64,000 nucleotides of DNA, taken from the NCBI GenBank assembly GCA_050115495.1, contig JASFQK010000016.1:32001-96000 (forward strand). Reading direction: 5' to 3'. The position numbers and the translations under genes were made by a program. The notes under the pieces are model-generated. The model was given only the letters and a program-made list of their open reading frames with translations. It was not told the DNA's origin and searched no databases. This DNA comes from Phycisphaerae bacterium (GTDB lineage: Bacteria > Planctomycetota > Phycisphaerae > UBA1845 > Fen-1342). This document shows, one piece after another, positions 28,828-52,648 of the stretch (its first letter is position 1; each line of letters starts with the position of its first letter).

Positions 28828-28835
28828 GTGCAGCC

Positions 28836-30382: not shown

Positions 30383-31564
30383 GTGTCCAAGCGTACGATC
30401 GTGGCCATGCCGGGCGACGGCATCGGCAAAGTAGTGCTGCCCGAGGCGCAGCGTGTGCTCCAGGCGGCGGGTTTCGAGGCTGAATACGTCCACGGCGACA
30501 TCGGCTGGGATTTCTGGATCAGCGAGGGCAACGCCCTGCCCGATCGGACGATTAAGCTGCTCGAACAGCACAAGATCGGTCTGTTCGGCGCCATCACGTC
30601 CAAGCCGAAGGACAAGGCCGACGCCGAGCTGTCGCCGGCGCTGCGCGGCAAAGGCTACGTGTACTACAGCCCGATCGTCACGATGCGGCAGCACTTCAAC
30701 CTCGACATCTGCATCCGGCCGTGTCGGTCGTTCCCGGGCAACCCGCTGAACTTCGTCCGGCGGGAGGGCGACGGTTTCGTCGAGCCTCCGGTGAACGCGG
30801 TCATCTTCCGCCAGAACACCGAAGGGCTGTACAGCGGCGTCGAGTGGACAAACCCGCCGGACCCGGTGTACGCGGCGCTGGCCACGCATCCGCGGTTTGC
30901 CAACTACAAGAGCTGCCCGCGGGCCGACCTGGCCGTCTCGACGCGGATCTTCACCCGCAACGCCTGCCGGCGGATCGCCAAGGCGGCGTTCGAGTACGCG
31001 AAGAAGTTCGGTTATCGGTCCGTCACGATCTGCGAGAAGCCGAACGTCATTCGCGAGACGTCCGGCATGCTCACGCTCGAGACGCGGGCCATCGGCCGCG
31101 ACTACCCGGGCATCGAGATCTGGGAGACGAACATCGACGCCCAGATGATGTGGCTGACGAAGAACCCTGAGGACTACGGCGTGATCGTCGCCGGCAACAT
31201 GTTCGGCGACATCGTGTCGGACGGCTTTGCGGGCCTGGTCGGCGGGCTCGGCTTCGCGTGCAGCGCGAACATCGGCGACGAGGTGGCGGTCTTCGAGCCG
31301 ACGCACGGCTCGGCCCCGAAGTATGAGAAGCTCAATCCGCCGATCGTGAACCCAATCGCCATGATCCTGTCGGCGTGCATGATGCTGGATCACATCGGCG
31401 AGACGGCGAGGGCAACGAAGATCCGCGACGCGATCGCGGCGGTCGTACAGGAAGGCAAGGTCCGCATGTACGACATGATGAAGCTGAAGGGCGGCCCGGA
31501 CGTGATCGGCCAGGGCGCCGCCACGACGTCGCAAATGACGGACGCGGTCATCGCGAAGCTGTAG
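30383..31564 (+). CDS. Isocitrate/isopropylmalate dehydrogenase family enzyme
   Basis: PGDGIG, FRQNTEGLY, EKPNV, NMFGDIVSD, FEPTHGSAPKY, NPIAMILS. Confidence 0.93.
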   Translation: MSKRTIVAMPGDGIGKVVLPEAQRVLQAAGFEAEYVHGDIGWDFWISEGNALPDRTIKLLEQHKIGLFGAITSKPKDKADAELSPALRGKGYVYYSPIVTMRQHFNLDICIRPCRSFPGNPLNFVRREGDGFVEPPVNAVIFRQNTEGLYSGVEWTNPPDPVYAALATHPRFANYKSCPRADLAVSTRIFTRNACRRIAKAAFEYAKKFGYRSVTICEKPNVIRETSGMLTLETRAIGRDYPGIEIWETNIDAQMMWLTKNPEDYGVIVAGNMFGDIVSDGFAGLVGGLGFACSANIGDEVAVFEPTHGSAPKYEKLNPPIVNPIAMILSACMMLDHIGETARATKIRDAIAAVVQEGKVRMYDMMKLKGGPDVIGQGAATTSQMTDAVIAKL

Positions 31565-31576
31565 CGGGCGGGCCAT

Positions 31577-31726
31577 GTGGCACCGGATTGCATCCGGTGC
31601 GTCGCTTGACGCCCGCGTCGGATGTAGCGTCGGCCCCCCGTGGCCGACGTCGAGTACGAAAGACGTTGGTTTTCGTGGCGGGCCTGCGGTCGTTCGTTGA
31701 ATCGTGCCACTGCTCTGTGAGCAGCG
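31577..31726. repeat. REP cluster
   Basis: GTGGCACCGGATTGCATCCGGTG (31577-31599); exact GTAG type A (31624-31653); GTGCCACTGCTC..GAGCAG (31704-31726). Confidence 0.85.
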
Positions 31727-31801
31727 TCTTCTCGCGCAACCAGCGATCGGCCTTGGTCGGAAGGCAGCCGCGCGCGTAGCCCAGTCAACCAGGATCGTCC
31801 G

Positions 31802-32428
31802 ATGCCAGGGCAGTCCAGACCGCCGCTGCGACGCAAGACGACCCCCAAGGTCCAGGGTGGCAAGCCCCTGCGCAAGAGCCGGACCGCACTGACGCCGCAT
31901 CCACTGCAGATCCCCTCATCGGTTCCCTGGATCGACCGCGAACGCCCCGGTCCCAGCCACCGCCACTTTCTACGCAAGAAGGACATCCTGGAGTTCATCG
32001 ATCTGCTGCCCGAGTGGGACGAACTGGCAAAGGGGCTCAGAGGCATCCTGCTCGCCCGCGGCGAATACGATACCGCCGGCTGGCACCGGCCCGGTCTGGT
32101 CGCCGTCTGTGCCTGGGAGCGCGACGTGTGGCAACGCGTCTGTGTCGAGCACTACGAAGAGCACGCGGACGTTTTTCGCCGGCTCGGCGTCCCCTGCGAG
32201 CGTGCCGGCGACGTCGTCGTCTGCCAGTTCACCGACCAAGCAGTGCGCGACTACCAGCTCCTGCATATCCTGCTGCACGAGCTGGGCCACCACCACGATC
32301 GAATCACCACGCGTAGCAAGGTCGACGCCGCCCGCGGCGAAGGCTACGCCGAGCGCTATGCGTTGAAGTACATGGACGAAATCTGGCACCGCTACGCGGA
32401 GCGGTTCGGGCTGCCGGGCCTATCGTGA
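31802..32428 (+). CDS. Hypothetical protein with zincin HExxH motif
   Basis: LHILLHELGHHHD..GEGYAERYA. Confidence 0.65.
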   Translation: MPGQSRPPLRRKTTPKVQGGKPLRKSRTALTPHPLQIPSSVPWIDRERPGPSHRHFLRKKDILEFIDLLPEWDELAKGLRGILLARGEYDTAGWHRPGLVAVCAWERDVWQRVCVEHYEEHADVFRRLGVPCERAGDVVVCQFTDQAVRDYQLLHILLHELGHHHDRITTRSKVDAARGEGYAERYALKYMDEIWHRYAERFGLPGLS

Positions 32429-32514
32429 CGTGCGGCGCGAGTGGATAATGAAAACGTGCTAACCCTGATCTGACGTTTGAGCGTGGGAATGACGTTGGTC
32501 CTCGCGACCGGCGC

Positions 32515-32606
32515 GTAGCGTCGGCCCCCCGTGGCCGACGTGGAATGCGAACGACGCTGGATCTCGCGGCTGGCGTGTAGCGTCGGCCCCCCGTGGCCGA
32601 CGTCGA
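32515..32606 (+). repeat. Two GTAG type A REPs upstream of the RAYT remnant
   Basis: 32515-32544 (1 mismatch) and 32577-32606 (exact). Confidence 0.9.
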
Positions 32607-32640
32607 AGACGAAGAACACCCCGCCGTTGGGAGCAACCGC

Positions 32641-32890
32641 ATGCGGCCGCCTCGGCGAAAGACACCGCTTCGCGACCTGACGACCTATGGTCGCGGACGC
32701 GCCGTGCGGCTGCCGGACTGTGATTACGTCGGCGAGATCGACCTGCATGTGACGCTTTGCGCTGACCGTGGCACGCCTTTTCGCGACGTTGCCGTGGCAA
32801 GCATGATCTGTGACAACGTGGAGTTTTATTGCCGGAAGCTGGCGTATCGGCTCTATGGGTTCACGGTCGGCCACGGAGGGCCGGCGCTAC
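32641..32890 (+). pseudogene. Truncated REP-associated tyrosine transposase (RAYT/TnpA-REP) fused to an inverted REP
   Basis: RAVRLPDCDY..HVTLCADRGTPF..YRLYGF resembles RAYT N-termini. The frame runs into an inverted REP (32866-32890) where the MPDHxH motif is expected. Confidence 0.65.
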
Positions 32891-32961
32891 GGGTTGAGGT
32901 GCGTGGGCGTGTTGGCCGGTACAATGGCCCGTCTGGAGCCTGGTCACTTTGGAGTTGAATG

Positions 32962-34938
32962 ATGCCTCAGACACTTATCGAGAAGATCGCCCAGCGGTAT
33001 GCCGTCGGGCTGGCCGGGGGGCATGAGGTTCGGGCCGGCGACTTTCTGTCGATTCGGCCGGCGCACGTGATGACGCACGACAACACGTCGGCGGTCATCC
33101 CGAAGTTCAAGTCCATGGGCGCGACGCGCGTCGCCGATCCGGACCAGCCGGTGTTCGCCCTGGACCACGACATCCAGAACACCGCGGCCGACAACGTCGC
33201 CAAATACGACAAGATCCGGGCCTTCGCCAAGGAGCAGGGCATCGCCTTCCATCCGGCGGGGCGGGGCATCGGCCACCAGATCATGCTCGAAGAAGGCTTC
33301 GTGCTGCCGGGGTCGTTCGTCGTCGGCTCCGACTCGCATTCGAACATCTACGGGGCGCTGGGCGCCCTGGGTACGCCGGTTGTTCGTACCGACGCCGCCG
33401 CCATCTGGGCCACCGGTCGCACGTGGTGGCAGGTGCCCGAGGTGGTCAAGGTGACGCTGCAAGGGGCGCTGGCTCCCGGCGTGACCGGCAAGGACGTGAT
33501 CATCGCCCTGATCGGCACGTTCGTGAATGACGAGGTGCTGAACTGCTGCCTCGAATTCACCGGTCCCGGCGTGGCCGCGCTCGGGGTTGAAGAGCGCATG
33601 ACCATCGCCAACATGACGACCGAATGGGGGGCGCTCGCCGGCGTCTTCCCGTACGACAAGGTCACGCGCGAGTACCTGCTCGCCCGGGCTGAGCACTTCA
33701 AGGAGCGCGGCGACGCTCGCCCGCGGTTGACGCCGGAGCTGGTGGCCAAGCTCGACGCCGAGGCGCTGGCCGCGGATGCGCGAGCTGCCTATGCGAAGGA
33801 GCTGACGTTCGACCTGTCGGCGGTGACGCCGTTCGTCGCCGGCCCGAACGAGGTCAAGACGATCGCTCCGGTCGGCGAGCTCGAAGCCCGCGACATCCGC
33901 ATCGACAAGGCCTTCCTGATGAGCTGCGTGAACGGCCGGTTGCAGGACTTCGCGGCGGCGGCGGAAGTGATGGAAGGCCGCCGGGTCGCCAAGCACGTGA
34001 AGCTGTACATCGCCGCCGCTTCGAACGAGATCGAGGAAGAGGCGAAGCGGCTTGGCTACTGGGGCAAGCTGGTGGCGGCGGGGGCGATCGTGCTGCCGGC
34101 GGGCTGCGGCGCGTGCATCGGCCTTGGCGATGGCGTTCTCGCGGACGGCGAGGTGGGCATCTCGGCCACCAACCGCAACTTCAAGGGCCGCATGGGCTCA
34201 CGTGAGTCGTTCGTGTACCTGGCCAGTCCAGCGGTGGTGGCGGCGTCGGCGGCGGCGGGTCGGATCGCCGGCCCGCGGGCCGATGCGCGACCTGCGCAGG
34301 AGCTGCGCGAAGCGGTGCGCAGGTCGGCGGAGTGCCACGTGAATCGGCTGGAACGGCCGGCGGCCCGCGTCGAGATCATCGACGGCTTCCCGAAGGCGAT
34401 CGAGGGCGAACTGCTGTTCGTGCCGAAGGACAACATGAACACCGACGGCATCTACGGCAAGGAGTATACGTACCAGGAAGGCCTCACGCCGGAGCAGATG
34501 GCCAAGGTCGCCATGGCGAACTACGACCCGGCGTTCCAGGAGCTGGCCGAGGACGGCGACGTCCTGGTCGGCGGGTACAACTTCGGGTCGGGCTCGTCGC
34601 GCGAGCAGGCGGCGACGGCCCTGAAGTACCGCGGCTTGCAGCTCATCATCGCCGGCTCGTTCTCGCAGACGTACAAGCGTAACGCGTTCAACAACGGCTA
34701 CATTTGCCTCGAGTGCCCGCAGCTTGTCGACGAGTTGCGGGTCGAGTACCGCGAGGACAAGCGGCTGACCATCCGCACCGACCGACCGACGGTCGTCGAT
34801 TTCATCGAGTCGAAGATTACGTGCGACGGTGTCGGGTATCCGTTCGCTGCGCTCGGCGAGGTGGCCCAGCAGCTCATCGCCCAGGGCGGCTTCGAGCCGG
34901 TGATTCGGCAGCAATTGGCGGAATTGGGTAAGAAATAG
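32962..34938 (+). CDS. Fused large+small subunit aconitase-family enzyme, homoaconitase (LysF/Lys4)-like
   Basis: MTHDNT, DHDIQN, GRGIGHQ, SDSHSN, SCVNGR, GCGACIG, ATNRNFKGRMGS; swivel domain NTDGIY, NFGSGSSREQA. Confidence 0.88.
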   Translation: MPQTLIEKIAQRYAVGLAGGHEVRAGDFLSIRPAHVMTHDNTSAVIPKFKSMGATRVADPDQPVFALDHDIQNTAADNVAKYDKIRAFAKEQGIAFHPAGRGIGHQIMLEEGFVLPGSFVVGSDSHSNIYGALGALGTPVVRTDAAAIWATGRTWWQVPEVVKVTLQGALAPGVTGKDVIIALIGTFVNDEVLNCCLEFTGPGVAALGVEERMTIANMTTEWGALAGVFPYDKVTREYLLARAEHFKERGDARPRLTPELVAKLDAEALAADARAAYAKELTFDLSAVTPFVAGPNEVKTIAPVGELEARDIRIDKAFLMSCVNGRLQDFAAAAEVMEGRRVAKHVKLYIAAASNEIEEEAKRLGYWGKLVAAGAIVLPAGCGACIGLGDGVLADGEVGISATNRNFKGRMGSRESFVYLASPAVVAASAAAGRIAGPRADARPAQELREAVRRSAECHVNRLERPAARVEIIDGFPKAIEGELLFVPKDNMNTDGIYGKEYTYQEGLTPEQMAKVAMANYDPAFQELAEDGDVLVGGYNFGSGSSREQAATALKYRGLQLIIAGSFSQTYKRNAFNNGYICLECPQLVDELRVEYREDKRLTIRTDRPTVVDFIESKITCDGVGYPFAALGEVAQQLIAQGGFEPVIRQQLAELGKK

Positions 34939-34983
34939 CGGGCGTCGCGCGCCTTTTGGCGCCGGCCCGGAGAGCGGCGACCG

Positions 34984-35004
34984 GTAGGGCGGGTTCCACC
35001 CGCC
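34984..35004 (+). repeat. GTAG-hairpin REP (other class)
   Basis: GTAG GGCGGGT TCC ACCCGCC. Confidence 0.6.
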
Positions 35005-35071
35005 GGCTGCTTCGTTGCGGGAAGAACATCGGTTTCACGTGGAACCGAGCTGAGCCTGACAGGGGTATGGC

Positions 35072-36013
35072 GTGTCCGACCGACCGTTGCACGTGGTGAC
35101 GGGTGCGCTGGGCTATTCCGGCCGGGCGATCACGGAGCGTTTGCTGGCCCGCGGGATTCGCGTGCGGACGCTCACGAACTCGCCGAACCGGCCGCATCCG
35201 TTCGGCGAGGCCCTGGAGATCCACCCGCTGGCGTTCCAGGAGCCGGAGCGGCTGGTCGCGTCGCTGCGCGGCGCGGCCGTGCTCTACAACACGTACTGGG
35301 TCCGTTTCGACCACCGGCTGTTCACGTTCGCGCAGGCGGTGGCGAACACAAAGGCGCTCTTCGAAGCCGCGGCCGCCGCCGGCGTGGGGCGTATCGTGCA
35401 CGTCAGCATCCTGCATCCGGAAGGCGGGCGCGGGCTGGCGTACTACGAGGGCAAGGCGGAACTGGAGCGAGCCCTGCACGGCGTCGGCGTTCCGCATGCG
35501 ATTCTGCGGCCCGGTGTGCTGTTCGGCCGCGGCGACATCCTGGTGAACAACATCGCCTGGATGCTGCGGCACCTGCCGGTCTTCGGCGTTTTCGGCGACG
35601 GCCGGTACGCTCTACGGCCGTTGCACGTGGATGACTTCGCCGACCTGGCGGTGGCGCAGGGGTTGCGCGAGGACGAAGCGGTGGTCGACGCCGTGGGGCC
35701 GGAGACGTTTACGTACCGCGAACTGGCGGCGACGCTGGGACGCATCCTGGGCGTTCGGCGGCCGATCGTGCGGGTGTCGCCGGTGCTGGGGTATTGGTGT
35801 GCCCGGCTGCTGAATCCCGTGGTGGGCGACGTGGTCATCACGCGGGAGGAGATTGCCGGACTGATGCGCGGCCTGCTAACATCAGACGCACCCGCCGCCG
35901 GTCCGACGCGGTTGACGGACTGGGCGACGGAGCACCGTGACCATCTCGGCCGGCGATACGCGAGCGAAGTCCGGCGGCGCGTGCGGCGAGATGTGGCGTA
36001 CGAGGCGGTGTAG
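35072..36013 (+). CDS. NAD(P)-binding atypical SDR (NDUFA9/epimerase-like)
   Basis: VTGALGYSG, YYEGK, LRPGVLFG. Confidence 0.85.
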   Translation: MSDRPLHVVTGALGYSGRAITERLLARGIRVRTLTNSPNRPHPFGEALEIHPLAFQEPERLVASLRGAAVLYNTYWVRFDHRLFTFAQAVANTKALFEAAAAAGVGRIVHVSILHPEGGRGLAYYEGKAELERALHGVGVPHAILRPGVLFGRGDILVNNIAWMLRHLPVFGVFGDGRYALRPLHVDDFADLAVAQGLREDEAVVDAVGPETFTYRELAATLGRILGVRRPIVRVSPVLGYWCARLLNPVVGDVVITREEIAGLMRGLLTSDAPAAGPTRLTDWATEHRDHLGRRYASEVRRRVRRDVAYEAV

Positions 36014-36062
36014 GGCCGGACGTGCGGGCCGAACAACGTGGAAGTGAATCCGGGAGACTGGG

Positions 36063-36347
36063 ATGGACGGAACGCGAGATCGGCAGAAGAAGCTCTCGGC
36101 CGCGGTCAGCAAGATCTTGTTCAACGAATGGGATCCGATCGACGTCCACGACGAAGGCTGCCCGAGCGACGAATACGACTCGCATGTTCCGGGCGTTTGC
36201 CGGTTACTGAACCAGGGTGCGAGCGCGCAGGAAATTGCCGAGCATCTGGCCATCGTCGCCCGCGACATCATCGGTACTGATGGCGCGACCACAGAGACGG
36301 AGCTACCAATCGCACGGCGACTGGTTGAGCTTGTCCGCGAGACATAG
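36063..36347 (+). CDS. Small hypothetical protein (DUF1871-like)
   Basis: WDPIDV....DEYDS motif. Confidence 0.65.
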   Translation: MDGTRDRQKKLSAAVSKILFNEWDPIDVHDEGCPSDEYDSHVPGVCRLLNQGASAQEIAEHLAIVARDIIGTDGATTETELPIARRLVELVRET

Positions 36348-36389
36348 CCGCTCCCGGCCGCGTGCCGCAGGACGACTACAGGAGAAACC

Positions 36390-36968
36390 ATGATTGCCGA
36401 GACTGACATCAACAAGCTGTTTGCCTCCGTTCTGGAACGTATCAAGAACAAGGACCTGCGCGACAAGGTCGTCAAGACGTGGACGCTCGCTTGCGAGCGC
36501 GGCGGGTGGCAGAGCGTCGACGAACTGAAGAAGATGCCCTTCACGCTGCTGGTCGACACGCATGGCATCAACTTCATCGAGCACACGATCGCCGTCACGG
36601 AGGGCGCTTGCGGGCTGGCGCGGGCGCAGGAAGAGGCGTACGCAAAGATGCCGTACGCGGTCGACTACGATCGGCTGCTCGCCGGCGGGTTGCTGCACGA
36701 TGTCGGCAAGCTGCTGGAAACGGAGAAGGACGGCAAGGGCGGCTTCCGCAAGAGCCGCGGTGGCCAGTGCCTGCGTCATCCGATCTCCGGTACGACAATC
36801 GCCCACGAGGCCGGCATCCGTGATGAGGTGGTTCTCAACACGATTGCCTGTCACGCGAAGGAAGGTGAAGGCGCGCCGAAGTGCCTGGAGACTGTCTTGA
36901 TTCACCAAGCGGACTTTGCGACCTTCGATCCGCTCGTGGCGAAGGGAAAGGGCGCTTTGATTGAGTAG
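36390..36968 (+). CDS. HD-domain protein
   Basis: EHT..LLHDVGK..RHPISG..H..HQAD; AGGAG SD. Confidence 0.9.
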   Translation: MIAETDINKLFASVLERIKNKDLRDKVVKTWTLACERGGWQSVDELKKMPFTLLVDTHGINFIEHTIAVTEGACGLARAQEEAYAKMPYAVDYDRLLAGGLLHDVGKLLETEKDGKGGFRKSRGGQCLRHPISGTTIAHEAGIRDEVVLNTIACHAKEGEGAPKCLETVLIHQADFATFDPLVAKGKGALIE

Positions 36969-36974
36969 CGGCGA

Positions 36975-37006
36975 AGCCGTCAGCCATCAGCCGTCAGCCT
37001 TCAGCC
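36975..37006 (+). repeat. 7-mer tandem run (TCAGCCN)
   Basis: agccgtcagccatcagccgtcagccttcagcc; inverted run at 37400-37424. Confidence 0.8.
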
Positions 37007-37059
37007 GAAGATCGCGGGCCGAACGCTGCTGGCTGTTGGTGGGCGGCTTGGAGAGTGTC

Positions 37060-37419
37060 ATGCAGGACTTCCGGGAATTGAAGGTCTGGCAGAAGGCACA
37101 CGAGTTGACGCTGGCCGTCTACCGTGCGACGGCTGCCTTCCCGCGGGAAGAGCTGTATGGAATCGTGAGCCAGATACGCCGGGCAGCGTCGTCGATTCCG
37201 GCGAACCTCGCGGAGGGCCGCTGTCGGCGCACCGACCGCGACTTTGGCCGTTTCGTCGGTATTGCGCTAGGCTCCGCAAGCGAGGTCGAGTACCACGTGC
37301 TTCTGGCACGCGATCTGGAGTTCCTGGAACCGGCGGCCTACGGTAGGCTGAGCGAGCAAGTGGAAGAAGTGAAGCGCATGTTGTCGGCCTTGTATGATCG
37401 GCTGATGGCTGATGGCTGA
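37060..37419 (+). CDS. Four-helix bundle protein (23S rRNA IVP-like family)
   Basis: FRELKVWQKA, FPREELYG..SQIRRAASSIPANLAEG, IALGSASEVEY. Confidence 0.92.
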   Translation: MQDFRELKVWQKAHELTLAVYRATAAFPREELYGIVSQIRRAASSIPANLAEGRCRRTDRDFGRFVGIALGSASEVEYHVLLARDLEFLEPAAYGRLSEQVEEVKRMLSALYDRLMADG

Positions 37420-37431
37420 GGGCTAAGGACC

Positions 37432-39252
37432 ATGAGCAAGACGATTATTGAGAAGATCATCGCCAGCCACGCCGGCCACGACGTTCGGCCCGGCGATATT
37501 GTGGATGTTCGTATCGACGCCCGGGTGGCCCGCGATTTCGGCGGAGCCAACGTGGTCAAGAACATCGAGCAGGCCGAGCTCGGTATCGCCGACCCGGCGT
37601 GCACGTACTTCACGTTCGACTGCAACCCCGGTGGCTCGGACCAGAAGTACGCCGCCAACCAGCAGACGTGCCGCCAGTACGCTCGCCGACAGGGCATCCG
37701 CCTCTGCGACGTGGACGCCGGCATCGGCACGCACCTGGCGATGGAACTGGGGTTCGTCGGGCCGGGGCAGACACTCGTCTCGACCGACTCGCACGCGAAC
37801 ATCATGGGCGCGATCGGCGCGTTCGGGCAGGGCATGGGCGACCAGGACATCGCCCATGCGTTCGCCCACGGCACCGTATGGTTCAAGATCCCGCCCACGC
37901 AGCGCATCCGGCTGACCGGGCAGCCGTCCAAGGCGGCGACGCCGAAGGATGTGGCGTTGGCGCTCTGCCGGCACTTCGGGGCGAACGGGTTGCTGGGCTA
38001 TGCGGCGGAGTTGTACGGGCCGTACGTGGACGGGCTGGACGTCGCCGGCCGGGTGACGCTGGCTTCGATGTGCACGGAGATGGGCGGGATCATCCTGATG
38101 CTGCCGCCGAATGAGGCCGTGCTGGACTTCTGCCGCGAGGCCTGCGGGCGTGAGCTGGAGCCGGTCTACGCCGACAAGGACGCGGTCTATGCGGAAGAGG
38201 TGGAGATCGATCTGAGCGGTCTGGAGCCGCTGGTGGCGCGGCCCGGGCAGCCGGAGGACGTGGTGCCCCTGTCGGAAGTGGCGGGGACGAAGATCGACTC
38301 GGCGTTCATCGGTTCGTGCACGAACGGGCGGTTCGAGGATATCGCCGCCGCGGCGCGGATTCTGAAGGGTCGGCACGTGGCGCCGGGCGTCGTGCTGAAG
38401 ATCGTGCCGGCGACGGACGGTGTTTGGCGGCGGCTGCTCGATGAGGGGTTGCTGCGCGTGCTGAAGGAGGCCGGGGCGCTCGTGGGGAACGCGGGTTGTG
38501 CGGGTTGTGCCGCCGGCCAGATCGGTCAGAACGGTCCGGGTGAGGTCACGGTGAGCACGGGCAACCGCAACTTCCCCGGCAAGCAGGGCAAGGGCAGCGT
38601 CTACCTGGCGTCGCCGGAGACGGCGGCGGCTTCGGCCATCGCCGGCGTTATCGCTGCCAGCGACCGGATGCCGGCGGAAGTGGCCACGTTCGCGGCGGCG
38701 CGGGCGCCGGCTTCGCGGCCGGCGGCGGCTGCGGCGGCCCGGGCGGTGGCGCGGTTCCGGCCGACGAAGCTGCGCGGCCGGGTGTGGCGAGTCGGGCGCG
38801 ACAACATCGACACGGACATGATCTATCACAACCGCCATCTGGCCGTCACCGATGCCCGTGAGATGGGGCAGTACGCGTTCGGCAACCTGCCCGACTGGGA
38901 GGATTTCCCGCAGAAGGTCCAGGCCGGCGACATCATCATCACGGGGCGGAACTTCGGCTGCGGCAGCTCGCGGCAGCAGGCGGTCGATTGCTTCCAGACG
39001 CTGGGCGTGTCGGCAATCATCGCCGAGTCGTTCGGGGCGATCTACGAGCGCAACGCGATCAACGCTGGCCTGGCCATCATGACCGCTGGCGTGGAAGCGT
39101 CCGGGCTGGCCACGGGCGATGAGATCGAGGTGGACCTGGAAACGGGTCTCATTCGGCGGCCGGCGGACGGGATGGAAGTTCAGGGCGAGCCGCTGTCGAC
39201 GGCGCAGATGGCGATCTATCAGCGTGGCGGGTTGCTGGTGCGCGTGGCCTGA
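37432..39252 (+). CDS. Fused LeuC/LeuD-type aconitase-family dehydratase
   Basis: STDSHAN, IGSCTNGR, GCAGC, TGNRNFPGK; Ala-rich linker; NIDTDMI, NFGCGSSRQQA. Confidence 0.9.
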   Translation: MSKTIIEKIIASHAGHDVRPGDIVDVRIDARVARDFGGANVVKNIEQAELGIADPACTYFTFDCNPGGSDQKYAANQQTCRQYARRQGIRLCDVDAGIGTHLAMELGFVGPGQTLVSTDSHANIMGAIGAFGQGMGDQDIAHAFAHGTVWFKIPPTQRIRLTGQPSKAATPKDVALALCRHFGANGLLGYAAELYGPYVDGLDVAGRVTLASMCTEMGGIILMLPPNEAVLDFCREACGRELEPVYADKDAVYAEEVEIDLSGLEPLVARPGQPEDVVPLSEVAGTKIDSAFIGSCTNGRFEDIAAAARILKGRHVAPGVVLKIVPATDGVWRRLLDEGLLRVLKEAGALVGNAGCAGCAAGQIGQNGPGEVTVSTGNRNFPGKQGKGSVYLASPETAAASAIAGVIAASDRMPAEVATFAAARAPASRPAAAAAARAVARFRPTKLRGRVWRVGRDNIDTDMIYHNRHLAVTDAREMGQYAFGNLPDWEDFPQKVQAGDIIITGRNFGCGSSRQQAVDCFQTLGVSAIIAESFGAIYERNAINAGLAIMTAGVEASGLATGDEIEVDLETGLIRRPADGMEVQGEPLSTAQMAIYQRGGLLVRVA

Positions 39253-39309
39253 CGCCGACCGTTCGCGATACCGTCCAGAGCCGAAGAACACGTGCGAGGG
39301 TCGATCGTC

Positions 39310-40683
39310 ATGGGAACCGTCACGGAAACGTTGGCTCGCTGGGCGGCGGAACTCGAATGGGATGACCTCACGCCGGAGGCCATCGACGCCGCCAAGCTCT
39401 TCCTCTACGACTCGCTCGGCTGTGCGCTCGGTGGTTATCAGACGGCCGACGTCAAGATCTACCTCGAACACACGCTCGACCTCGGCGGGAACGAGGCGTG
39501 CACGCTGATCGGTTCGGGTCGGCGGACCAGCCCGAGCATCGCCGCCCTCGGCAACGCCCTCATGATCCGGGCGCTCGACTACAACGACATCTACTGGAAG
39601 CAGGACCCGTCGCACCCGAGCGACCTGATCCCCGCCGCCACCGGCTTCGCCGAACGCGACCACCGGGCCGGTAAGGACCTCATCACGGCGATCGTGCTGG
39701 CGTATGAGATCGAGATGCGGCTGTGCGAATTTGCCGTCCCGGGCATTCGCGAGCGCGGCTGGCACCACGCGACGTTGACGGCCATCGCGGCACCGATCGT
39801 CGCCGGCTGGATGCTGGGGTTGTCGTGGCGGCAGATGCAGCATTCGATCGGTATCTCCGCGTGTCACCAGGCGACGTTCGGCGCCGCCGTCGCCGGCAAG
39901 CTGACCATGATGAAGAACACGGTCGATCCGCTGGCAACGCAGGGTGGGGTCGAGGCGGCTATGCTGGCCCGGCGGGGCTACACGGGGCCGGAGGGCGTGC
40001 TCGACGGGAAAGAGGGGCTGATGCACTGCCTCGGCCCGGAGTGGGATCTCGGCAAGCTGACCGACGGGCTCGGCGATCGGTTCAAGATCGCGGATTGCGG
40101 GATGAAGTCGTATCCGGTCGAGGCCCTGATGCACTCGCCGCTGTCGGCGACGCTGCACCTGGTGCACGAGCACGGGTTGCGGGCGGAGGACGTGCAGGAG
40201 GTGCTCGTCGAGAGCATCGCCCGGGCGGCGGATATCCTCTCCGATCCGGCGAAGTACGACCCGCAGAGTCGCGAATCCGCCGACCATAGCCTGCCGTACA
40301 GCATCGCCGCCGCCTTGGCCGAGGGGCGGGTGACGCCGGTGGAGTTCACGGAGGAGAAGCTCTGGGACGAGCGGCTGCGGGCGCAGATGAAGAAGGTGCG
40401 GGTGGTGGCGAACGAGGAGTTCGAGCGGGCCTTCCCGGCGAGGCAGTGCGCGCGGGTGACGATCACGCTGGCGGATGGGCGGAAGGTGACGCGGCAGGTG
40501 GACGTGCCCAAGGGCGACCCGCGCGACCCGATGACGCCGGACGAGGTGCAGACGAAGTTCGACGCGCTGGCGGATCCGGTGATGAGTGCGTCGCGGCGGT
40601 TGGCACTGAAGGATGCGGTGTTCGGGTTGGAGCGGGAGGAGGATTGCGCCCGGCTCCTGCAACTCTGCGCGGCCGACCGCTGA
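39310..40683 (+). CDS. MmgE/PrpD family dehydratase
   Basis: RALDYND.Y....SHPSD, GWHH, KSYPVEALMHSP, SRESADHSLPY, PKGDPRDPM. Confidence 0.92.
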   Translation: MGTVTETLARWAAELEWDDLTPEAIDAAKLFLYDSLGCALGGYQTADVKIYLEHTLDLGGNEACTLIGSGRRTSPSIAALGNALMIRALDYNDIYWKQDPSHPSDLIPAATGFAERDHRAGKDLITAIVLAYEIEMRLCEFAVPGIRERGWHHATLTAIAAPIVAGWMLGLSWRQMQHSIGISACHQATFGAAVAGKLTMMKNTVDPLATQGGVEAAMLARRGYTGPEGVLDGKEGLMHCLGPEWDLGKLTDGLGDRFKIADCGMKSYPVEALMHSPLSATLHLVHEHGLRAEDVQEVLVESIARAADILSDPAKYDPQSRESADHSLPYSIAAALAEGRVTPVEFTEEKLWDERLRAQMKKVRVVANEEFERAFPARQCARVTITLADGRKVTRQVDVPKGDPRDPMTPDEVQTKFDALADPVMSASRRLALKDAVFGLEREEDCARLLQLCAADR

Positions 40684-40827
40684 CCGCTCGCCCCCGCCTC
40701 GTTGCCTGGTTGCCTCGTTGTCTTCTTCCGTTTGCTTTGTCCTCCCCGAAACGCTACGCTGAGAATTCGGTTGGCGGTGAGCAGATCCTGCACCGCCCGC
40801 AGGGGGCCCGCTCAGAGGAGGGTGACC

Positions 40828-42135
40828 ATGTCCGCACTGCGCGACGGGCAGCGAACAGACGATTCCGGGGCGGCCGCAGGGACACTCCCGACAGCCAGCC
40901 GGGCGCTGCGCCACGTCGCGGCGGTCGAGGAGAAGGTGTTCGAGCTTTACGACCGCATGCTCGGCGACGTACACATTCCGCGTGTTCTGCGCGATGTTGC
41001 CGACGTGGTCTGCCAGGACCTAGGGGCCGAACGGGCCTCGGTCTACCTGATTGACAAGGCCACCCAGGAGCTCGAGTCGGTGGCGGTGATTGGCAACGTT
41101 GCCCAGACCATCCGCGTGCCGATCTCGGCGGCGTCGCTCGCCGGCTACTGCGCCCTCCGCGGGCGTACGTTCGTCGTGCCCGACGCCTATGGCGATCTGA
41201 GCGGGATCGACCCGGCGTTGTGTTTCGACCGCAGTTGGGACCGCAGGAACGACTTCCGCACGCGCGACGTCATGTGCGCCCCCGCCCTGTTCAAGGGCGA
41301 GGTGATGGGCGTCGTGCAGGTCATGAACAGCACCGGCCGCCCGTTCGATTCATCAGATCTCCTTCCCCTGCGCACCATCTCGCGGGTCATCGGCTACGCC
41401 CTGTACCACGCCCGCCTCTACGACGACCTCGCCACGCTCAAGCAGCTCGAGAAGGAGAAGGCCGGCTTCATTCGGATCATGGTGCACGAGCTGAAGTCCC
41501 CCGTCGCCGCCGCCAAGATGCTGGCTGACGCTTTGGCCGATCACGACCACATCGTCGGCTCCGAAGTGGCCCCAGTGACCGCCCGCATCTCCGAGCGCAT
41601 GGGTCAGCTCATGGACATGATCGGCGACCTGCTGCACCTCGCCCGGGTCCGGTCGGGCGAGCCGCTCGGCGAGATCGCCACGATCGACCTCGTCTCCGAG
41701 ACGCGGACGGTCTGCGAGACCCAGCGCGAGAGCGCCCAGCACAAGAAGCTTGATTGGTCGCTCACGCTTCCCGATCAGCCGTTGCCCGTCCGTTGCGACG
41801 CGCAGGGTTACCGGCTGGTCGTCTCCAACCTCGCCTCGAACGGCATCAAGTACACCACGACCGGCTTCGTCCGCGTCAGCCTTCGGCGCGAGGAGTCCTG
41901 GGCCGTCCTGGAGGTGAGCGACAGTGGCATCGGTATCCCCGAGGCCGACGTCCCCAAGCTGTTCCAGGAGTTCTTCCGTGCCAGCAACGCTCGCCGGCAG
42001 CGCATCGAGGGCAGCGGTGTCGGTCTGGCCGGCGCCAAGGCGATCGTCGAACGTTTCGGCGGCACGTTCGCCCTGAAGACGCGCGAGAACGAAGGAACCA
42101 CCTTTGCCGTCCGCCTGCCCCTTTCCACTACCTGA
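40828..42135 (+). CDS. GAF-domain sensor histidine kinase
   Basis: GAF motif FDRSWD..NDFRTRDVMC; HELKSP; NLASNGIKY, DSGIGI, GVGLA. Confidence 0.9.
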   Translation: MSALRDGQRTDDSGAAAGTLPTASRALRHVAAVEEKVFELYDRMLGDVHIPRVLRDVADVVCQDLGAERASVYLIDKATQELESVAVIGNVAQTIRVPISAASLAGYCALRGRTFVVPDAYGDLSGIDPALCFDRSWDRRNDFRTRDVMCAPALFKGEVMGVVQVMNSTGRPFDSSDLLPLRTISRVIGYALYHARLYDDLATLKQLEKEKAGFIRIMVHELKSPVAAAKMLADALADHDHIVGSEVAPVTARISERMGQLMDMIGDLLHLARVRSGEPLGEIATIDLVSETRTVCETQRESAQHKKLDWSLTLPDQPLPVRCDAQGYRLVVSNLASNGIKYTTTGFVRVSLRREESWAVLEVSDSGIGIPEADVPKLFQEFFRASNARRQRIEGSGVGLAGAKAIVERFGGTFALKTRENEGTTFAVRLPLSTT

Positions 42136-42296
42136 CACCCCTGTTTCGACGCGGTGGGGCCGACGCGGCCGGCGTGGGGGGATTTGGCAGGGTGGGGGGG
42201 AGCGTCTACACTGGTGTGTTTACGGCCGGGCCTCGGTTTCGGTCCATGTCAATCCCGAACGAAGGCGCCCGGCACGCGATTGGTGGAGAGGCGAGC

Positions 42297-43496
42297 GTGG
42301 AGACGACGAAGACGGCTGAGGCGGGACGGCGGGGGACGGATGTCCGTTCGGATTGCTGGGTACAGGTGACACTGGCCGGCCGCGTCGGGATCGACCTCAA
42401 GCTCAAGACGAAGGTCGAGTCGATGTACGGGGCGGCGACACGCGAGCTGGTGACGAAGGTCCTGGCCGCGCTGGGCGTCACCGCCGGCACGGTGGAGATG
42501 GAAGACGCCGGCGCGCTGCCGCTGGTCATCACGGCGCGGATCGAGGCCGCCGTGCGGCGGCTGGGGCTGGACGTCGGCGACGGCTATCTGCCGGAGTTCG
42601 AGCCGCACGCCCAATACGCGACGCAGCGAGATCGGCTGCGGCGGTCGCGGTTGTACCTACCCGGCAACGAGTCGAAGTTCATGCTCAACGCCGGTCTGCA
42701 CCATCCGGACGGCGTGATTCTCGACCTGGAGGATAGCGTCGCGCTGGCTGTGAAGGACGAAGCCCGGCTGATGGTGCGGAACGCGCTGCGGACGATCGAC
42801 TTCTGCGGTTCCGAGCGCATGGTGCGGATCAACCAGGGCCAGCGCGGGCTCGAAGACCTTGAGTTCATCGTGCCGCACAACGTGCACGTGGTGCTCATTC
42901 CGAAGGTCGAATCGCCGGACCAGGTCCGCGAGGTCGACGCCCGCATCGCCGAGATTCTGAAGAAGCGGGGGATCGAGCAGACCGTGTACCTGATGCCGAT
43001 TGTGGAGAGCGCGCTCGGGGCGATTCGGGCGTACGAGATCGCGACGGCCTCGAAGAACATCTGCGCGCTGACGATCGGCCTCGAAGATTATACGGCCGAC
43101 CTGGGCACGCAGCGCACCGATGAAGGGCGCGAGAGCTTCTGGGCCCGCTGCCAGGTGGTCAACGCCGCCCGGGCGGCCGGCGTGCAGCCGATCGACACGG
43201 TGTACTCGGACGTGAGCGACATGGCTGGCCTGCGGGCCAGCGTGCTAGAGGCGAAGGGGCTCGGGTTCGACGGCAAAGGGTGCATCCACCCGCGGCAGAT
43301 TCCGGTGATCCACGAGGCGTTCGCGCCGGCGCCGGCGGAGTTGGAGAAGGCGCAGAAGATCGTCGCGGCGTTCGAGGAAGCGCAGGCCAAGGGGCTCGCC
43401 GCGGTGTCGCTGGGCAGCAAGATGATCGATCCGCCGGTGGTGAAGCGCGCGCAGCGCGTGGTGGCGTTGGCGCGGACGATGGGGCTTGTGTCGTAG
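42297..43496 (+). CDS. Citrate lyase ACP (CitD)-beta subunit (CitE) fusion
   Basis: N-terminal CitD-like region (SDC.V, YG, DAGAL..VITARIEAAV); CitE region RRSRLYLPGN, LDLEDSV, VRIN, IVESA, GLEDY, GKGCIHPRQ. Confidence 0.88.
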   Translation: METTKTAEAGRRGTDVRSDCWVQVTLAGRVGIDLKLKTKVESMYGAATRELVTKVLAALGVTAGTVEMEDAGALPLVITARIEAAVRRLGLDVGDGYLPEFEPHAQYATQRDRLRRSRLYLPGNESKFMLNAGLHHPDGVILDLEDSVALAVKDEARLMVRNALRTIDFCGSERMVRINQGQRGLEDLEFIVPHNVHVVLIPKVESPDQVREVDARIAEILKKRGIEQTVYLMPIVESALGAIRAYEIATASKNICALTIGLEDYTADLGTQRTDEGRESFWARCQVVNAARAAGVQPIDTVYSDVSDMAGLRASVLEAKGLGFDGKGCIHPRQIPVIHEAFAPAPAELEKAQKIVAAFEEAQAKGLAAVSLGSKMIDPPVVKRAQRVVALARTMGLVS

Positions 43497-43606
43497 GCTG
43501 GGTGGACGGACGGGTTCCAGGACGACGCCCGAGGAGACGACCATGGTTTCGCGCTTGATGGCGGCGGCGAAGACGTCTGGGTGCCGGGTGCCGCGGGGAA
43601 CGCAGC

Positions 43607-43792
43607 GGTGTGCCACTGCTCTTGAGCAGTGCTCGCGGTTTGCCGAGACAACGCGTGAGTGTCGACAAGCGACGGCCGACACGGAGGTCGGCTGCTACGC
43701 GTTCGACGTCGGCCACGGGGGGCCGACGCTACAAGACGGCCGACACGGAGGTCGGCCGCGACAAGACGTCCGGTACGGAGCCCGGACGCTAC
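43607..43792. repeat. REP cluster: one GTGCCAC palindrome plus four tandem GTAG hairpins
   Basis: 43607-43631; minus-strand GTAG units at 43671-43698, 43703-43732, 43735-43762 and 43765-43792. Confidence 0.88.
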
Positions 43793-43806
43793 GGGACGTT
43801 CGGACG

Positions 43807-45021
43807 GTGCTGGCGGTTTTGTTGTGCGCGGTGTTGGCGGGGTGTGCGGCGCCGGGAGCGCGGGAGGCTACGCCGCCGACGGGGCCGGCGATCAGCGAAT
43901 GCTGTGCTGCTGTACAGCAGCGGTTGGCCGGATTCTGCACGCAACGGGACATTCCTGGCGCGACGTGCGCGTTCGTGCTGCCGGACGGGCGGCTGGGGGC
44001 GGTGGCGGTCGGCGTGTCCAGCCGGACGACCGGGCAGGCCATGGAGCCGACCAATCGCATGCTCGCCGGCAGCGTCGGAAAGACGTTCGTGGCGGCGGTG
44101 CTACTTCAGCTTCACGCCGAGGGACGCGTCGATCTGGACGAGAAGATCAGCCACTGGCTCGGGCAGGAGGCGTGGTTCGCACGGCTGCCGAACGGGCCGG
44201 GCATCACGCTGCGCATGCTGCTGAACCACACGAGCGGGCTCGAAGAGTATTACCCGATGGAGGGATTCATCAACGCCGTGTCCGCCGACTTGCAGCGGGC
44301 CTGGCAGCCGGGTGAGCGCATCGCGTACATCCTCGACCGCCCGGCGCTGTTCCCCGCTGGCCAGGGCTGGTCCTACGCCGACACGAACTTCCTGCTCGTC
44401 GGCATGATCATCGAGAAGGTGACCGGCCGGACGTACTATGAGGAGCTGACGCGGCGGATTCTGCGGCCGCGCGATTTGCAGGACACGATTCCGTCGGACC
44501 GCAACCCGCTGCCCGGCTTGGTCAGCGGCTACACGACGCCGGATCATCCGTTCCCCGTCCCCGCGGAGATCACGAAGGACGGCTTCGTGGCGATGAACCC
44601 GCAGATGGAATGGACCGGCGGCGGCGTGCTGAGCAACGCTCCGGACTTGGCTCGCTGGGCCCGGATGCTGTACGCGGGCGACGTTCTGCCGCCGGCGGAG
44701 AGGACGCTCATGCTCGCCGGCGTGCCGACGCAGCGCTGGCCGAACGTGGACTACGGCCTGGGCGTGCTGATTCGGCGAACGCCGCACGGCATCGTGTACG
44801 GACACAGCGGCTGGTTCCCCGGCTACATCACGATGATGGGCTGGTACGCCGGCCACGAGCTGGCTCTGGCGGTGCAGTTCAACAGCGACGTTGGCATGTC
44901 TTCGGAGGCGCTGTCGGGGCTGACCGATGATCTGGCCGGCGTGCTCCTGGCCAAACTGAGTGGTCTGACGGCTCAGCAGCGGGCTGCACTGCGTGCCGCT
45001 GATGGCGGCCTTGGGCAGTGA
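43807..45021 (+). CDS. Serine hydrolase (beta-lactamase-related / S12) lipoprotein
   Basis: Lipobox LAGC; GSVGKT (SxxK), LLNHTSG, WSYADTN, GHSG. Start uncertain. Confidence 0.85.
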   Translation: MLAVLLCAVLAGCAAPGAREATPPTGPAISECCAAVQQRLAGFCTQRDIPGATCAFVLPDGRLGAVAVGVSSRTTGQAMEPTNRMLAGSVGKTFVAAVLLQLHAEGRVDLDEKISHWLGQEAWFARLPNGPGITLRMLLNHTSGLEEYYPMEGFINAVSADLQRAWQPGERIAYILDRPALFPAGQGWSYADTNFLLVGMIIEKVTGRTYYEELTRRILRPRDLQDTIPSDRNPLPGLVSGYTTPDHPFPVPAEITKDGFVAMNPQMEWTGGGVLSNAPDLARWARMLYAGDVLPPAERTLMLAGVPTQRWPNVDYGLGVLIRRTPHGIVYGHSGWFPGYITMMGWYAGHELALAVQFNSDVGMSSEALSGLTDDLAGVLLAKLSGLTAQQRAALRAADGGLGQ

Positions 45022-45089
45022 TCGAGAGTCTGTCGCAGGTTTCGCTCTCTTCGTGGGCGATTGACTGCTGGTGATTGAGGATTCCCCAC

Positions 45090-46697
45090 ATGGCAGAGAA
45101 GGTCGAGCTCGTCAAGAACGCCGTCGGGCGTATGGTTCCGACGGTCGTCAACGGTCAGAAGCAGGTTCCGTTTCAGGGCGTGGGCAAGTATCGGCCCGAT
45201 GGTCGTAAGGCTGCTCCGCCGGTGCGGACGTGCAATGACTATCCCGCCGACGGGAACAAGGTCGTGGCCAACGCCCAGGCGGCCGGTGGCGGCGACCGGG
45301 CCAACATCGAGGCCCTGAAGACGGCCCTGAAGAACGCCGGCATCCGCAACGGCATGCGGATCAGCTCGCACCACCATTTCCGCAACGGCGACCGCATCGG
45401 CGTGCCGCTGTTCACCGCCGCCGCCGAGCTGGGCGTGAAAGACCTGATCTGGTTCCCGAGCGCGTGTTTCCCGTGCCATGCGCCGTTGATCGACCTGCTC
45501 GAATCGGGCGTGCTGCAACGCGTCGAGGGTTCGATGAACGGGCCGATTGGCGACTACTGCTCGACGGGGAAGATGCGCGGCTTGGGCGTGCTGCGTTCGC
45601 ACGGCGGCCGGTGGCAGGCCGTGCAGGATGGCGAGGTGCACATCGACATCGCCGTCCTGGCCGCTCCGAGCTGTGATTCGTTCGGCAATGCCAACGGCGT
45701 GAACGGGCCGTCGGCGTGTGGCGGGCTGGGGTTCGGGCTGGTGGATTCGCTCTACGCCGACCATGTGATCGCGGTCACGGACAACCTCGTGCCGTTCCCG
45801 TGTCTGCCATGGCAGATTCAGGGCAACAACGTCGACCAGGTTGTGGTGATGGACCGCATCGGCGATCCGGAGAAGATCGTCTCGGGCACGACGCAGCTTA
45901 CCAAGAGCCCGGATCGGCTGATGATCGCCGAGATGGCCGCGCAGTTCGTGCGCGAAGCCGGCATCATGAAGGACGGCTTCAGCTTCCAGGCCGGCGCGGG
46001 CGGAACGACGCTTGGGTTCGCCATCTACCTGAAGGAATACATGAAGCAGGCCGGCGTGAAGGCCCGCTTCATTCGCGGCGGCAGCACGAAATACCTCGTC
46101 GAGATGCTCGAAGAGGGGCTGACCGACTACATCCTCGACGGGCAGACGTTCGACCTGGACGGCGTGCGCAGCATGCGCGACAACCCGCGGCACCAGGATA
46201 CCAGCCCGTTCACCAGCTATAGCTGGCACGGCAAGGGCTGCTTCGCCACGTTCCTCGATGCGGTCGTGCTGGGAGCGACCGAGGTTGACGTGAACTTCAA
46301 CGCCAACGTCGTGACGCACTCCGACGGGCGGCTGCTGCACGGCATTGGCGGGTGGCAGAACTGCCTGAGCGGGCGCTGCGTGATCCTGCCGATTCCCTCG
46401 GTCCGCGACCGGATTCCGGTCATCATGGACGAGGTGACGACGGTCGTGGGTCCGGGCGAGATGATCGACGTGATCGTGTGCGAGCGGGGCATCGCCATCA
46501 ACCCGCGGCGGCAGGATCTGCGCGACGCCGTCGCCGGCAGCAAGCTGCCGATCCGACCGATCGAGGAGATCAAGGCCGAGGTGGACCGCATGTGCGGCGG
46601 TGCACCGGCCAAGCCGCGTCTGAAAGACCAGGTCATCGCGGCGATCAAGTGGGTGGACGGGACGGTGATCGACTGCGTACGGGCCGTGGAGGGGTAG
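45090..46697 (+). CDS. citF: Citrate lyase alpha subunit (CoA-transferase)
   Basis: SSHHHFRNGD, RSHGGR, GPSACGGLG, GDPEKIVSG, FQAGAGG, FNANVVTHSDG, ERGIAINPRR. Confidence 0.93.
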   Translation: MAEKVELVKNAVGRMVPTVVNGQKQVPFQGVGKYRPDGRKAAPPVRTCNDYPADGNKVVANAQAAGGGDRANIEALKTALKNAGIRNGMRISSHHHFRNGDRIGVPLFTAAAELGVKDLIWFPSACFPCHAPLIDLLESGVLQRVEGSMNGPIGDYCSTGKMRGLGVLRSHGGRWQAVQDGEVHIDIAVLAAPSCDSFGNANGVNGPSACGGLGFGLVDSLYADHVIAVTDNLVPFPCLPWQIQGNNVDQVVVMDRIGDPEKIVSGTTQLTKSPDRLMIAEMAAQFVREAGIMKDGFSFQAGAGGTTLGFAIYLKEYMKQAGVKARFIRGGSTKYLVEMLEEGLTDYILDGQTFDLDGVRSMRDNPRHQDTSPFTSYSWHGKGCFATFLDAVVLGATEVDVNFNANVVTHSDGRLLHGIGGWQNCLSGRCVILPIPSVRDRIPVIMDEVTTVVGPGEMIDVIVCERGIAINPRRQDLRDAVAGSKLPIRPIEEIKAEVDRMCGGAPAKPRLKDQVIAAIKWVDGTVIDCVRAVEG

Positions 46698-52585: not shown

Positions 52586-52648
52586 GTGCGTCTCCGTTTG
52601 GTGATTGCGTTTCTCTTTCGTGTCCGTGTCCGGTGCTGACGGCGCCAG

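Follow-up and report, generated by a model that had tools for sequence, protein, structure and literature searches.

A gene cluster conserved across bacterial phyla as a candidate reversible route between 2-oxoadipate and 2-oxoglutarate via (S)-homocitrate

We analyzed a 64,000-nucleotide stretch (the window) of contig JASFQK010000016.1 from a Phycisphaerae bacterium (assembly GCA_050115495.1; source genome 92% complete), in which an original prediction, made from the letters alone, had placed seven co-oriented genes for an isocitrate dehydrogenase (IDH)-like enzyme, two fused aconitases (here ACN1 and ACN2), a PrpD-like protein, an HD-domain protein, a CitD-CitE fusion (CitDE) and CitF. All seven open reading frames (ORFs) are present and intact on the plus strand within window positions 30383-46697, interleaved with other genes as listed below. 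Together they form a conserved, undescribed pathway module made of known enzyme families.

30383..31564, plus strand: beta-decarboxylating dehydrogenase of the IDH/isopropylmalate dehydrogenase (IPMDH) family (PF00180)
31802..32428, plus strand: interleaved 208-amino-acid ORF without family assignment or conservation in the cluster
32959..34938, plus strand: ACN1, predicted fused Lys4-type homoaconitase (homoisocitrate = cis-homoaconitate; TIGR00139, 752.7 bits)
35072..36013, plus strand: interleaved short-chain dehydrogenase/reductase (SDR)/epimerase-like gene, NAD(P)-binding, not conserved in the cluster
36390..36968, plus strand: HD-domain metalloprotein (PF01966)
37060..37419, plus strand: four-helix-bundle (23S IVP-like) protein, a recurrent passenger (PF05635)
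37432..39252, plus strand: ACN2, fused LeuC/D-like Fe-S hydro-lyase with a remodelled active site (NF001614, 401.8 bits)
39310..40683, plus strand: MmgE/PrpD-family protein (PF03972 and PF19305)
40702..42135, plus strand: GAF-histidine kinase, interleaved and without conservation in the cluster
about 42297..43496, plus strand: CitD-like and CitE fusion (PF06857 and PF03328), start codon estimated from the ribosome-binding site
43486..45021, plus strand: interleaved gene of serine-hydrolase/beta-lactamase fold, scoring under every class C cut-off and without conservation in the cluster
about 45090..46697, plus strand: CitF-type CoA-transferase (PF04223)

Both aconitases are large-small subunit fusions that keep their three Fe-S cysteines (Cys323/383/386 in ACN1, Cys296/356/359 in ACN2), and the dehydrogenase carries the HGSAPKY motif, as had been described. 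The GC content of the cluster equals that of its flanks, and a scan of the cluster for promoter and terminator signals performed no better than on shuffled sequence. One metatranscriptome (share 0.10) covered several of the genes with contigs that were short and of low depth; as a silent-stretch control was lacking, these are not counted as evidence of expression.

Synteny was assessed in 74 loci around ACN1 orthologues, taken from the best 80 of at least 553 matches, many of these loci ending at contig ends. The dehydrogenase is found in 31 of them, HD and PrpD in 23 each, CitF in 21, CitDE in 20 and ACN2 in one; all six functions occur together in 12, and no locus holds both PrpD and ACN2. 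The seven genes are thus syntenic across phyla and their grouping is not chance. The predicted linkage is borne out, although the conserved unit comprises six functions rather than seven genes, ACN2 and PrpD being normally alternatives. Carriers belong to Planctomycetota, Gemmatimonadota, Calditrichota, Lentisphaerota, Marinimicrobia, Eisenbacteria, Riflebacteria and Armatimonadota, and the closest relatives among the matches listed are from Phycisphaerae. Within the order, fused CitDE occurs in 16 of 111 genomes, the source genome included (a 17th match, G046, is a weak CitE match and was excluded). The interleaved genes behave differently: among the 74 loci the 208-amino-acid ORF and the SDR gene have no counterpart, a 94-amino-acid ORF and the serine hydrolase have one each, and the kinase has three at about 30% identity. 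Only the four-helix-bundle gene, among six interleaved, is recurrent (6/74, in varying positions). Clustering of neighboring ORFs added nothing further to the conserved set and revealed neither lysine genes nor transporters.

Two genomes carry a variant cluster, G005 (L106:4766-16007) and G011 (L107), in which HD, ACN2, HacA and HacB are accompanied by a citryl-CoA-lyase-like gene that replaces CitDE/CitF; G005 adds two succinyl-CoA-ligase-like (SCS-like) subunits, G011 has at least the lyase-like gene, and both have 2-oxoacid:ferredoxin oxidoreductase alpha and beta genes upstream. Detached modules were also seen on low-GC contigs (L147, L152, L154, L160, L168, L183 and others; L150, L157, L196, L215 and others); these are either dehydrogenase-HD-ACN2 without the rest or ACN2-HacA-HacB preceded by a regulator-like gene.

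The dehydrogenase is probably an NADP-dependent homoisocitrate dehydrogenase (HICDH). Its best NCBIfam match is the AksF-type HICDH model at 264 bits, below every cut-off, and it scores 158 bits against the NADP-IDH model TIGR00183 (cut-off 567). HGSAPKY is found in 68 of 69 orthologue motifs, and a long Lys-rich insertion lies ahead of the substrate helix. The S-P-I-V motif at 113-116 presumably resembles that of fungal Lys12. Residues S113-L-N115 of E. coli IDH align with S-P-I, so that Ser113 and the K-Y coenzyme motif are kept and Asn115 is replaced by Ile; in E. coli IDH both Ser113 and Asn115 bind the substrate carboxylate, according to the accessible part of PMC11134350. ACN1 is predicted to have the activity of a Lys4-type homoaconitase: it exceeds the curated homoaconitase cut-off (TIGR00139, 752.7 versus 529.9), its HD and DH motifs are intact along with the three cysteines and the fused architecture, and its orthologues occur in Chloroflexia positive for LysX. 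Fungal and Thermus homoaconitases interconvert homoaconitate and homoisocitrate only, as stated in the accessible part of PMC3556520, and therefore a second enzyme would be needed.

That second position is filled in two ways. Counting only cluster-type PrpD of at least 50% identity, and thus excluding methylcitrate-type paralogues of 33-37%, 21 of the 37 CitDE carriers (15 relatives from the order, G004 and 21 from other groups) have PrpD only, 13 have ACN2 only, one has both (G157) and two have neither (G153, whose locus stops where relatives have PrpD, and G155), so that 35 of 37 have one or the other. About eight genomes with both would be expected if the genes were independent (Fisher p 4e-7, an overstatement given the kinship of the genomes). 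Several families and phyla are themselves divided in this way, among them Gemmatimonadota (G134 and G136 versus G137 and G139), and so is a single genus (PrpD in G003, ACN2 in G004 and G006). In agreement, 80 metagenome loci around ACN2 contain no PrpD (HacA in 36, dehydrogenase in 24). PrpD and ACN2 therefore replace each other, and the source genome is a rare carrier of both. The two aconitases do not form a pair of half-reactions alongside PrpD, since ACN2 is the alternative to PrpD, while the broader idea of split dehydratases in place of a single aconitase is supported for a C7-type route.

ACN2, with its remodelled active site, is a candidate (S)-homocitrate dehydratase. It passes only the broad aconitase/isopropylmalate isomerase (IPMI) subfamily model (NF001614, 401.8 versus 385). 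Relative to MJ0499/MJ1003, MHD has become ARD and FDH has become FDC/T, with the loss of two active-site histidines, those of the HD and DH motifs of LeuCD/HacAB-type enzymes; we take the second to be the catalytic acid. Among homologues, ARD is found in 120 of 120 and C or T at the FDC/T position in 119 of 120. A quick tree places ACN2 on a branch of its own (SH-aLRT 100); the tree has no outgroup root, carries a long-branch warning and serves only to show three separate groups. Cys64 was considered as a fourth Fe-S ligand and ruled out, Thr standing in its place in 14 of 80 loci.

The PrpD-like protein is in turn a candidate O2-stable (S)-homocitrate dehydratase. Both Pfam domains of the MmgE/PrpD superfamily are present and R87, D90, N92, D93, H102, K266, D325 and H326 are kept in common with E. 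coli PrpD, while curated PrpD models give only 55-93 bits (cut-offs 458-950). A 34% identical paralogue sits in a prp operon on another contig. Action on 2-methylcitrate was rejected as the role of the cluster protein because 2-methylisocitrate is a tertiary alcohol, which the dehydrogenase could not oxidize.

A stereochemical argument may explain why a special dehydratase is found here. (2S,3S)-methylcitrate requires a dedicated dehydratase, as aconitases cannot remove its water (accessible parts of PMC3556520 and PMC5690661). CitE belongs to the (pro-3S)-lyase family, and by our own Cahn-Ingold-Prelog reasoning such a lyase acting on 2-oxoglutarate would yield (S)-homocitrate, with the C3 arrangement of (2S,3S)-methylcitrate. 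With the acetyl arm in place of the methylcitrate propionyl arm, (S)-homocitrate would thus call for a PrpD-fold enzyme or a rewired aconitase between the Lys4-type enzyme and CitE/CitF. Six Chloroflexia with ACN1 provide a control that fits: LysX exceeds its cut-off in all six, CitDE, PrpD and ACN2 occur in none, and a homocitrate synthase (HCS)-like gene (368-374 bits) is present in the five examined, as expected of synthase-type users without a special dehydratase.

In the lyase pair, many of the invariant residues of E. coli CitE and CitF are conserved (CitF 37% identity), and both subunits match at family rather than equivalog level (CitE 291 bits against TIGR01588, cut-off 443; CitF 476.8 against TIGR01584, cut-off 501.5). 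The column of E. coli CitD Ser14, which we take to be the acyl carrier protein (ACP) serine that carries the prosthetic group, holds Arg or Lys in every one of the 34 cluster rows; the next position is an invariant Ser, which may be a shifted attachment site. CitG is found in none of the 37 CitDE carriers, and searches with positive controls found neither CitG nor CitC in the source genome; E. coli CitC/G/X queries gave no match there or in the cluster loci examined, and a PDB search with the CitD-like domain gave none. Since Ser14 is replaced and CitG was not found, the pair falls outside citrate lyase proper, and the complex probably works on free CoA esters with its ACP-like domain unmodified. 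Isolated CitE and CitF can act on free CoA esters. CitD-CitE is a candidate (3S)-homocitryl-CoA lyase and CitF a candidate acyl-CoA:(S)-homocitrate CoA-transferase.

Together, these assignments lead us to propose, with moderate confidence, that the cluster encodes a reversible C7 route that is mostly degradative: 2-oxoadipate = homoisocitrate = cis-homoaconitate = (S)-homocitrate = 2-oxoglutarate plus acetyl-CoA or acetate. That its substrates belong to the homocitrate series is, by itself, rather probable. In the degradative direction the dehydrogenase would use NADPH and CO2 to convert 2-oxoadipate to homoisocitrate, which ACN1 (a HacA/HacB pair in other carriers) would dehydrate to cis-homoaconitate; the PrpD-like protein or ACN2, both available in the source genome, would hydrate this to (S)-homocitrate. 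CitF would then load CoA onto (S)-homocitrate from an acyl-CoA, and CitE would cleave (3S)-homocitryl-CoA to 2-oxoglutarate and acetyl-CoA, free CoA replacing the modified ACP. The earlier suggestion that the lyase pair takes the place of a synthase is supported for homocitrate synthase and not for citrate synthase, as GltA is encoded elsewhere. The genes, their families, synteny, PrpD/ACN2 interchange, the lack of CitG and of Ser14, and the co-occurrence with saccharopine dehydrogenase are observed; the substrates of all steps, the (S) configuration, the choice of cofactor and the direction of the route are inferred.

The HD protein has no step in this scheme. Its model (pLDDT 92) is nearest in fold to YhaM (E 1.7e-4), fold searches otherwise giving generic HD matches and, in the Atlas, unannotated HD clusters; K107, R129, K157, H65, D104, H130, H155, H172 and D175 are invariant. 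The gene travels with the dehydrogenase and hydratase genes rather than with the lyase, and a role in ACP editing was rejected because HD is also present in clusters without CitDE. As a guess, it may be a hydrolase for the repair or recycling of some side product, for instance a lactone or nucleotide cofactor. A subtype that accompanies PrpD (L025, L031, L070, L077) has Ala or Ile for the HD-motif His, with the other metal-site residues invariant.

The direction is suggested by genes elsewhere in the carriers. A strong saccharopine dehydrogenase (SDH) match (at least 490 bits) is found in 11 of 15 carriers of the order versus one of 19 non-carriers, a sample of 20 of the order's 94 non-carriers from which the SDH-positive ligase variant G005 was excluded (2/20 with it). 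In other groups, SDH at E 1e-30 occurs in 15 of 21 ACN1 carriers with CitDE versus five of 23 without, genome completeness being unknown. LysX exceeds its cut-off in none of the 37 CitDE carriers and in seven of 44 ACN1 carriers, the six Chloroflexia and one KSB1 genome (G156, which has PrpD), none with fused CitDE. Furthermore, lysA is present in 12 of the 15 order carriers, and no thioester-reductase (Lys2-type) domain exceeds its cut-off in five lysA-less carriers. As SDH tracks the cluster and LysX does not, degradation of lysine-derived 2-oxoadipate is favored in most carriers. The original prediction had left open 2-oxoacid elongation or its catabolic reverse; the latter is preferred for most carriers, the source genome being possibly an exception.

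The source genome contains a lysW-lysX-lysY-(GATase II-like)-lysZ-lysJ operon (C4:175250-180005; L102:9254-14003) with no lysK beside it. Its LysX is of the Thermus type (309 bits to 3vpd versus 163 to the ArgX-type 3vpb) and, as LysX exceeds its cut-off in none of 43 relatives, the operon looks recently gained. Searches with positive controls found neither LysA nor an HMGL-like synthase (PF00682; LeuA, homocitrate synthase) in the source genome, and no relative (0/43) exceeds the homocitrate synthase cut-off (TIGR02146). A pair of lysine-ketoglutarate reductase (LKR) and SDH is encoded as well, the LKR resembling human AASS (267 bits) more than it does fungal Lys1 (65 bits), along with a piperideine-6-carboxylate (P6C) dehydrogenase over its cut-off and a lysine-6-dehydrogenase-like gene, so named by inference. 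The LysW C-terminal residue is Gln, where Glu is usual; the Ntn-hydrolase-like (GATase II-like) gene could deamidate this Gln or replace LysK. No LeuB- or LeuC-type match lies outside the cluster, and from its gene content the source genome is probably a leucine auxotroph.

Several points weigh against a degradative homocitrate route. The dehydrogenase reaches no curated cut-off and keeps Ser113, and IDHs top its PDB search. The small-domain loop of ACN2 is nearer to the isopropylmalate/citramalate isomerase MJ1277 (122.7 bits) than to the homoaconitase MJ1271 (94.9), among PDB entries the PrpD-like protein resembles IDS epimerase more than it does methylcitrate dehydratases, and the HCS-like genes of the Chloroflexia control stay below the 413.6 cut-off. 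Strong SDH matches are missing from four of 15 and six of 21 carriers, and SDH may mark a peptide-degrading lifestyle common to kin. Reductive carboxylation runs uphill unless CO2 and a high NADPH ratio drive it. The source genome has SucA/SucB and GcdH, the standard exit from 2-oxoadipate, and its lysW-X-Y-Z-J genes, with lysA and an HMGL-like synthase not found, suggest forward use here.

This forward use leads to a first, unlikely alternative, in which the same C7 chemistry is mainly biosynthetic, 2-oxoadipate continuing to lysine without homocitrate synthase via LysW or a fungal-style saccharopine route. Besides the Thermus-type LysX and the apparent gaps in the source genome, SDH is found in seven of eight lysA-less relatives, and all steps are near equilibrium. 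Against it, LysX is found in none of the 37 other CitDE carriers and lysA is retained in most of those in the order; the LKR is of AASS type, the genome also encodes a P6C dehydrogenase, none of the five lysA-less genomes has a Lys2-type domain over its cut-off, the operon has no adjacent lysK, and CoA transfer would provide little driving force for condensation.

We find it similarly unlikely that the enzymes serve another (S)-configured series, such as citramalate and alkylmalates (from 2-oxobutyrate or branched 2-oxoacids), longer homologues (2-oxopimelate) or an unknown polycarboxylate, with PrpD and ACN2 possibly serving different members. The IPMI/citramalate-type loop of ACN2, the Lys-rich insertion in the dehydrogenase, the proximity of PrpD to IDS epimerase and the retention of both PrpD and ACN2 in the source genome and G157 would all fit, as would the best dehydrogenase models, those of methanogen AksF, which acts on longer homologues. 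The ACN1 orthologues in LysX-positive genomes, the SDH association and the retained Ser113, a carboxylate binder in IDH according to the accessible part of PMC11134350, favor the homocitrate series instead.

It appears improbable that plain citrate is the substrate, the genes then forming a second branch from citrate via isocitrate to 2-oxoglutarate that would serve citrate fermentation, the degradation of glutamate or an unconventional reverse tricarboxylic acid (TCA) cycle. This reading would account for the E. coli residues kept in CitE/CitF, the NADP-type motif and Ser113 shared with IDH, and the ACN2 loci that hold dehydrogenase-HD-ACN2 only; a proposal of this kind exists for CitDE/CitF of Ignavibacterium album (accessible part of PMC3362086). 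However, GltA lies elsewhere in the source genome in a prpD-gltA-prpB-prpC operon, and an AcnA-sized aconitase and an HGTAPKY IDH are likewise encoded separately; therefore the cluster is not the TCA branch of this genome, and the earlier suggestion that it replaces citrate synthase, aconitase and IDH to yield 2-oxoglutarate is not supported, with gltA, acnA, icd and the methylcitrate operon all outside it. Furthermore, ACN1 is of homoaconitase type, Asn115 of the dehydrogenase is replaced by Ile, and PrpD/ACN2 complementarity would be left unexplained, since citrate requires no special dehydratase. A chance grouping of genes from separate leucine, methylcitrate and citrate fermentation pathways is very improbable and already largely refuted by synteny and complementarity: unrelated genes are interleaved and the genes are split over loci in several genomes, but the six functions recur together in 12 loci, LeuA, CitC and CitG were not found, and the methylcitrate operon is separate.

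The proposed C7 route has parts in common with several known systems. The upper alpha-aminoadipate pathway of fungi and Thermus (homocitrate synthase, aconitase with Lys4/LysTU, and Lys12/HICDH) likewise uses a Lys4-type homoaconitase, an isomerization over two enzymes and a beta-decarboxylating dehydrogenase; in contrast, the cluster has CitE/CitF for the synthase and a PrpD-like protein or His-less aconitase as second enzyme, with predicted (S)- rather than (R)-homocitrate, an NADP-type motif and carriers mostly without LysX. CitE, CitF and a CitD-like domain are shared with citrate (pro-3S)-lyase CitDEF (EC 4.1.3.6), from which the cluster differs in the fusion of CitD to CitE, the Arg/Lys at the Ser14 column, the linkage to hydratases and a dehydrogenase, subunits below equivalog cut-offs, and CitC, CitG and CitX not found in the source genome. 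The 2-methylcitrate cycle (PrpC, PrpD or AcnD plus PrpF, aconitase, PrpB) also has a Si-type product that needs a special dehydratase before aconitase-type hydration, and a PrpD fold that needs no cofactor and can be exchanged for an Fe-S enzyme, whereas the cluster ends in a dehydrogenase rather than a lyase and holds no PrpB, PrpC or PrpF-family gene. Known fates of 2-oxoadipate include hydroxyglutarate synthase HglS and the 2-oxoacid dehydrogenase plus glutaryl-CoA dehydrogenase route, with the same entry metabolite from the saccharopine/P6C route; unlike these, the proposed route would fix CO2, use NADPH, need no O2 or electron-transfer-flavoprotein (ETF)-linked acceptor, and return 2-oxoglutarate and an acetyl unit. 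In I. album, CitF and a CitD-CitE fusion (IALB_1146/1147) were read as citrate fermentation or reverse TCA; the likeness is one of domain architecture, the accessible part of PMC3362086 reporting a genome without lysine biosynthesis and noting no homoaconitase/PrpD link. This mention aside, the literature searched (mostly open papers, no supplements) yielded no description of the gene or metabolite combination, in keeping with the earlier remark that it was not recognized as a described pathway.

The flanks hold other features. Just upstream, a 347-amino-acid ORF (28743-29786) lies in a low-GC stretch (0.577 versus about 0.66) and has no Pfam or NCBIfam match. Directly downstream is a large secreted protein that combines beta-helix-like, FN3 and DUF11 parts (46788-50936). 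The window also has a tandem pair of paralogous lipoprotein-like ORFs (51254-54106) with a SecDF P1 head domain, in which the membrane part was not detected.

Tentatively, the cluster may represent a widespread CO2-fixing branch of lysine degradation, a reversed aminoadipate pathway via (S)-homocitrate with an ACP-free lyase and two new, mutually unrelated dehydratases, which may also run forward in the source genome. If so, it would provide a new route for amino-acid carbon in little-cultured phyla, with net CO2 uptake and NADPH disposal, and an enzymatic source of (S)-homocitrate. It would also give functions to a PrpD clade and to a large subfamily of aconitases that currently bears the name 'isopropylmalate dehydratase', and neither citrate fermentation nor a reverse TCA cycle could be deduced from CitDE/CitF in such genomes.

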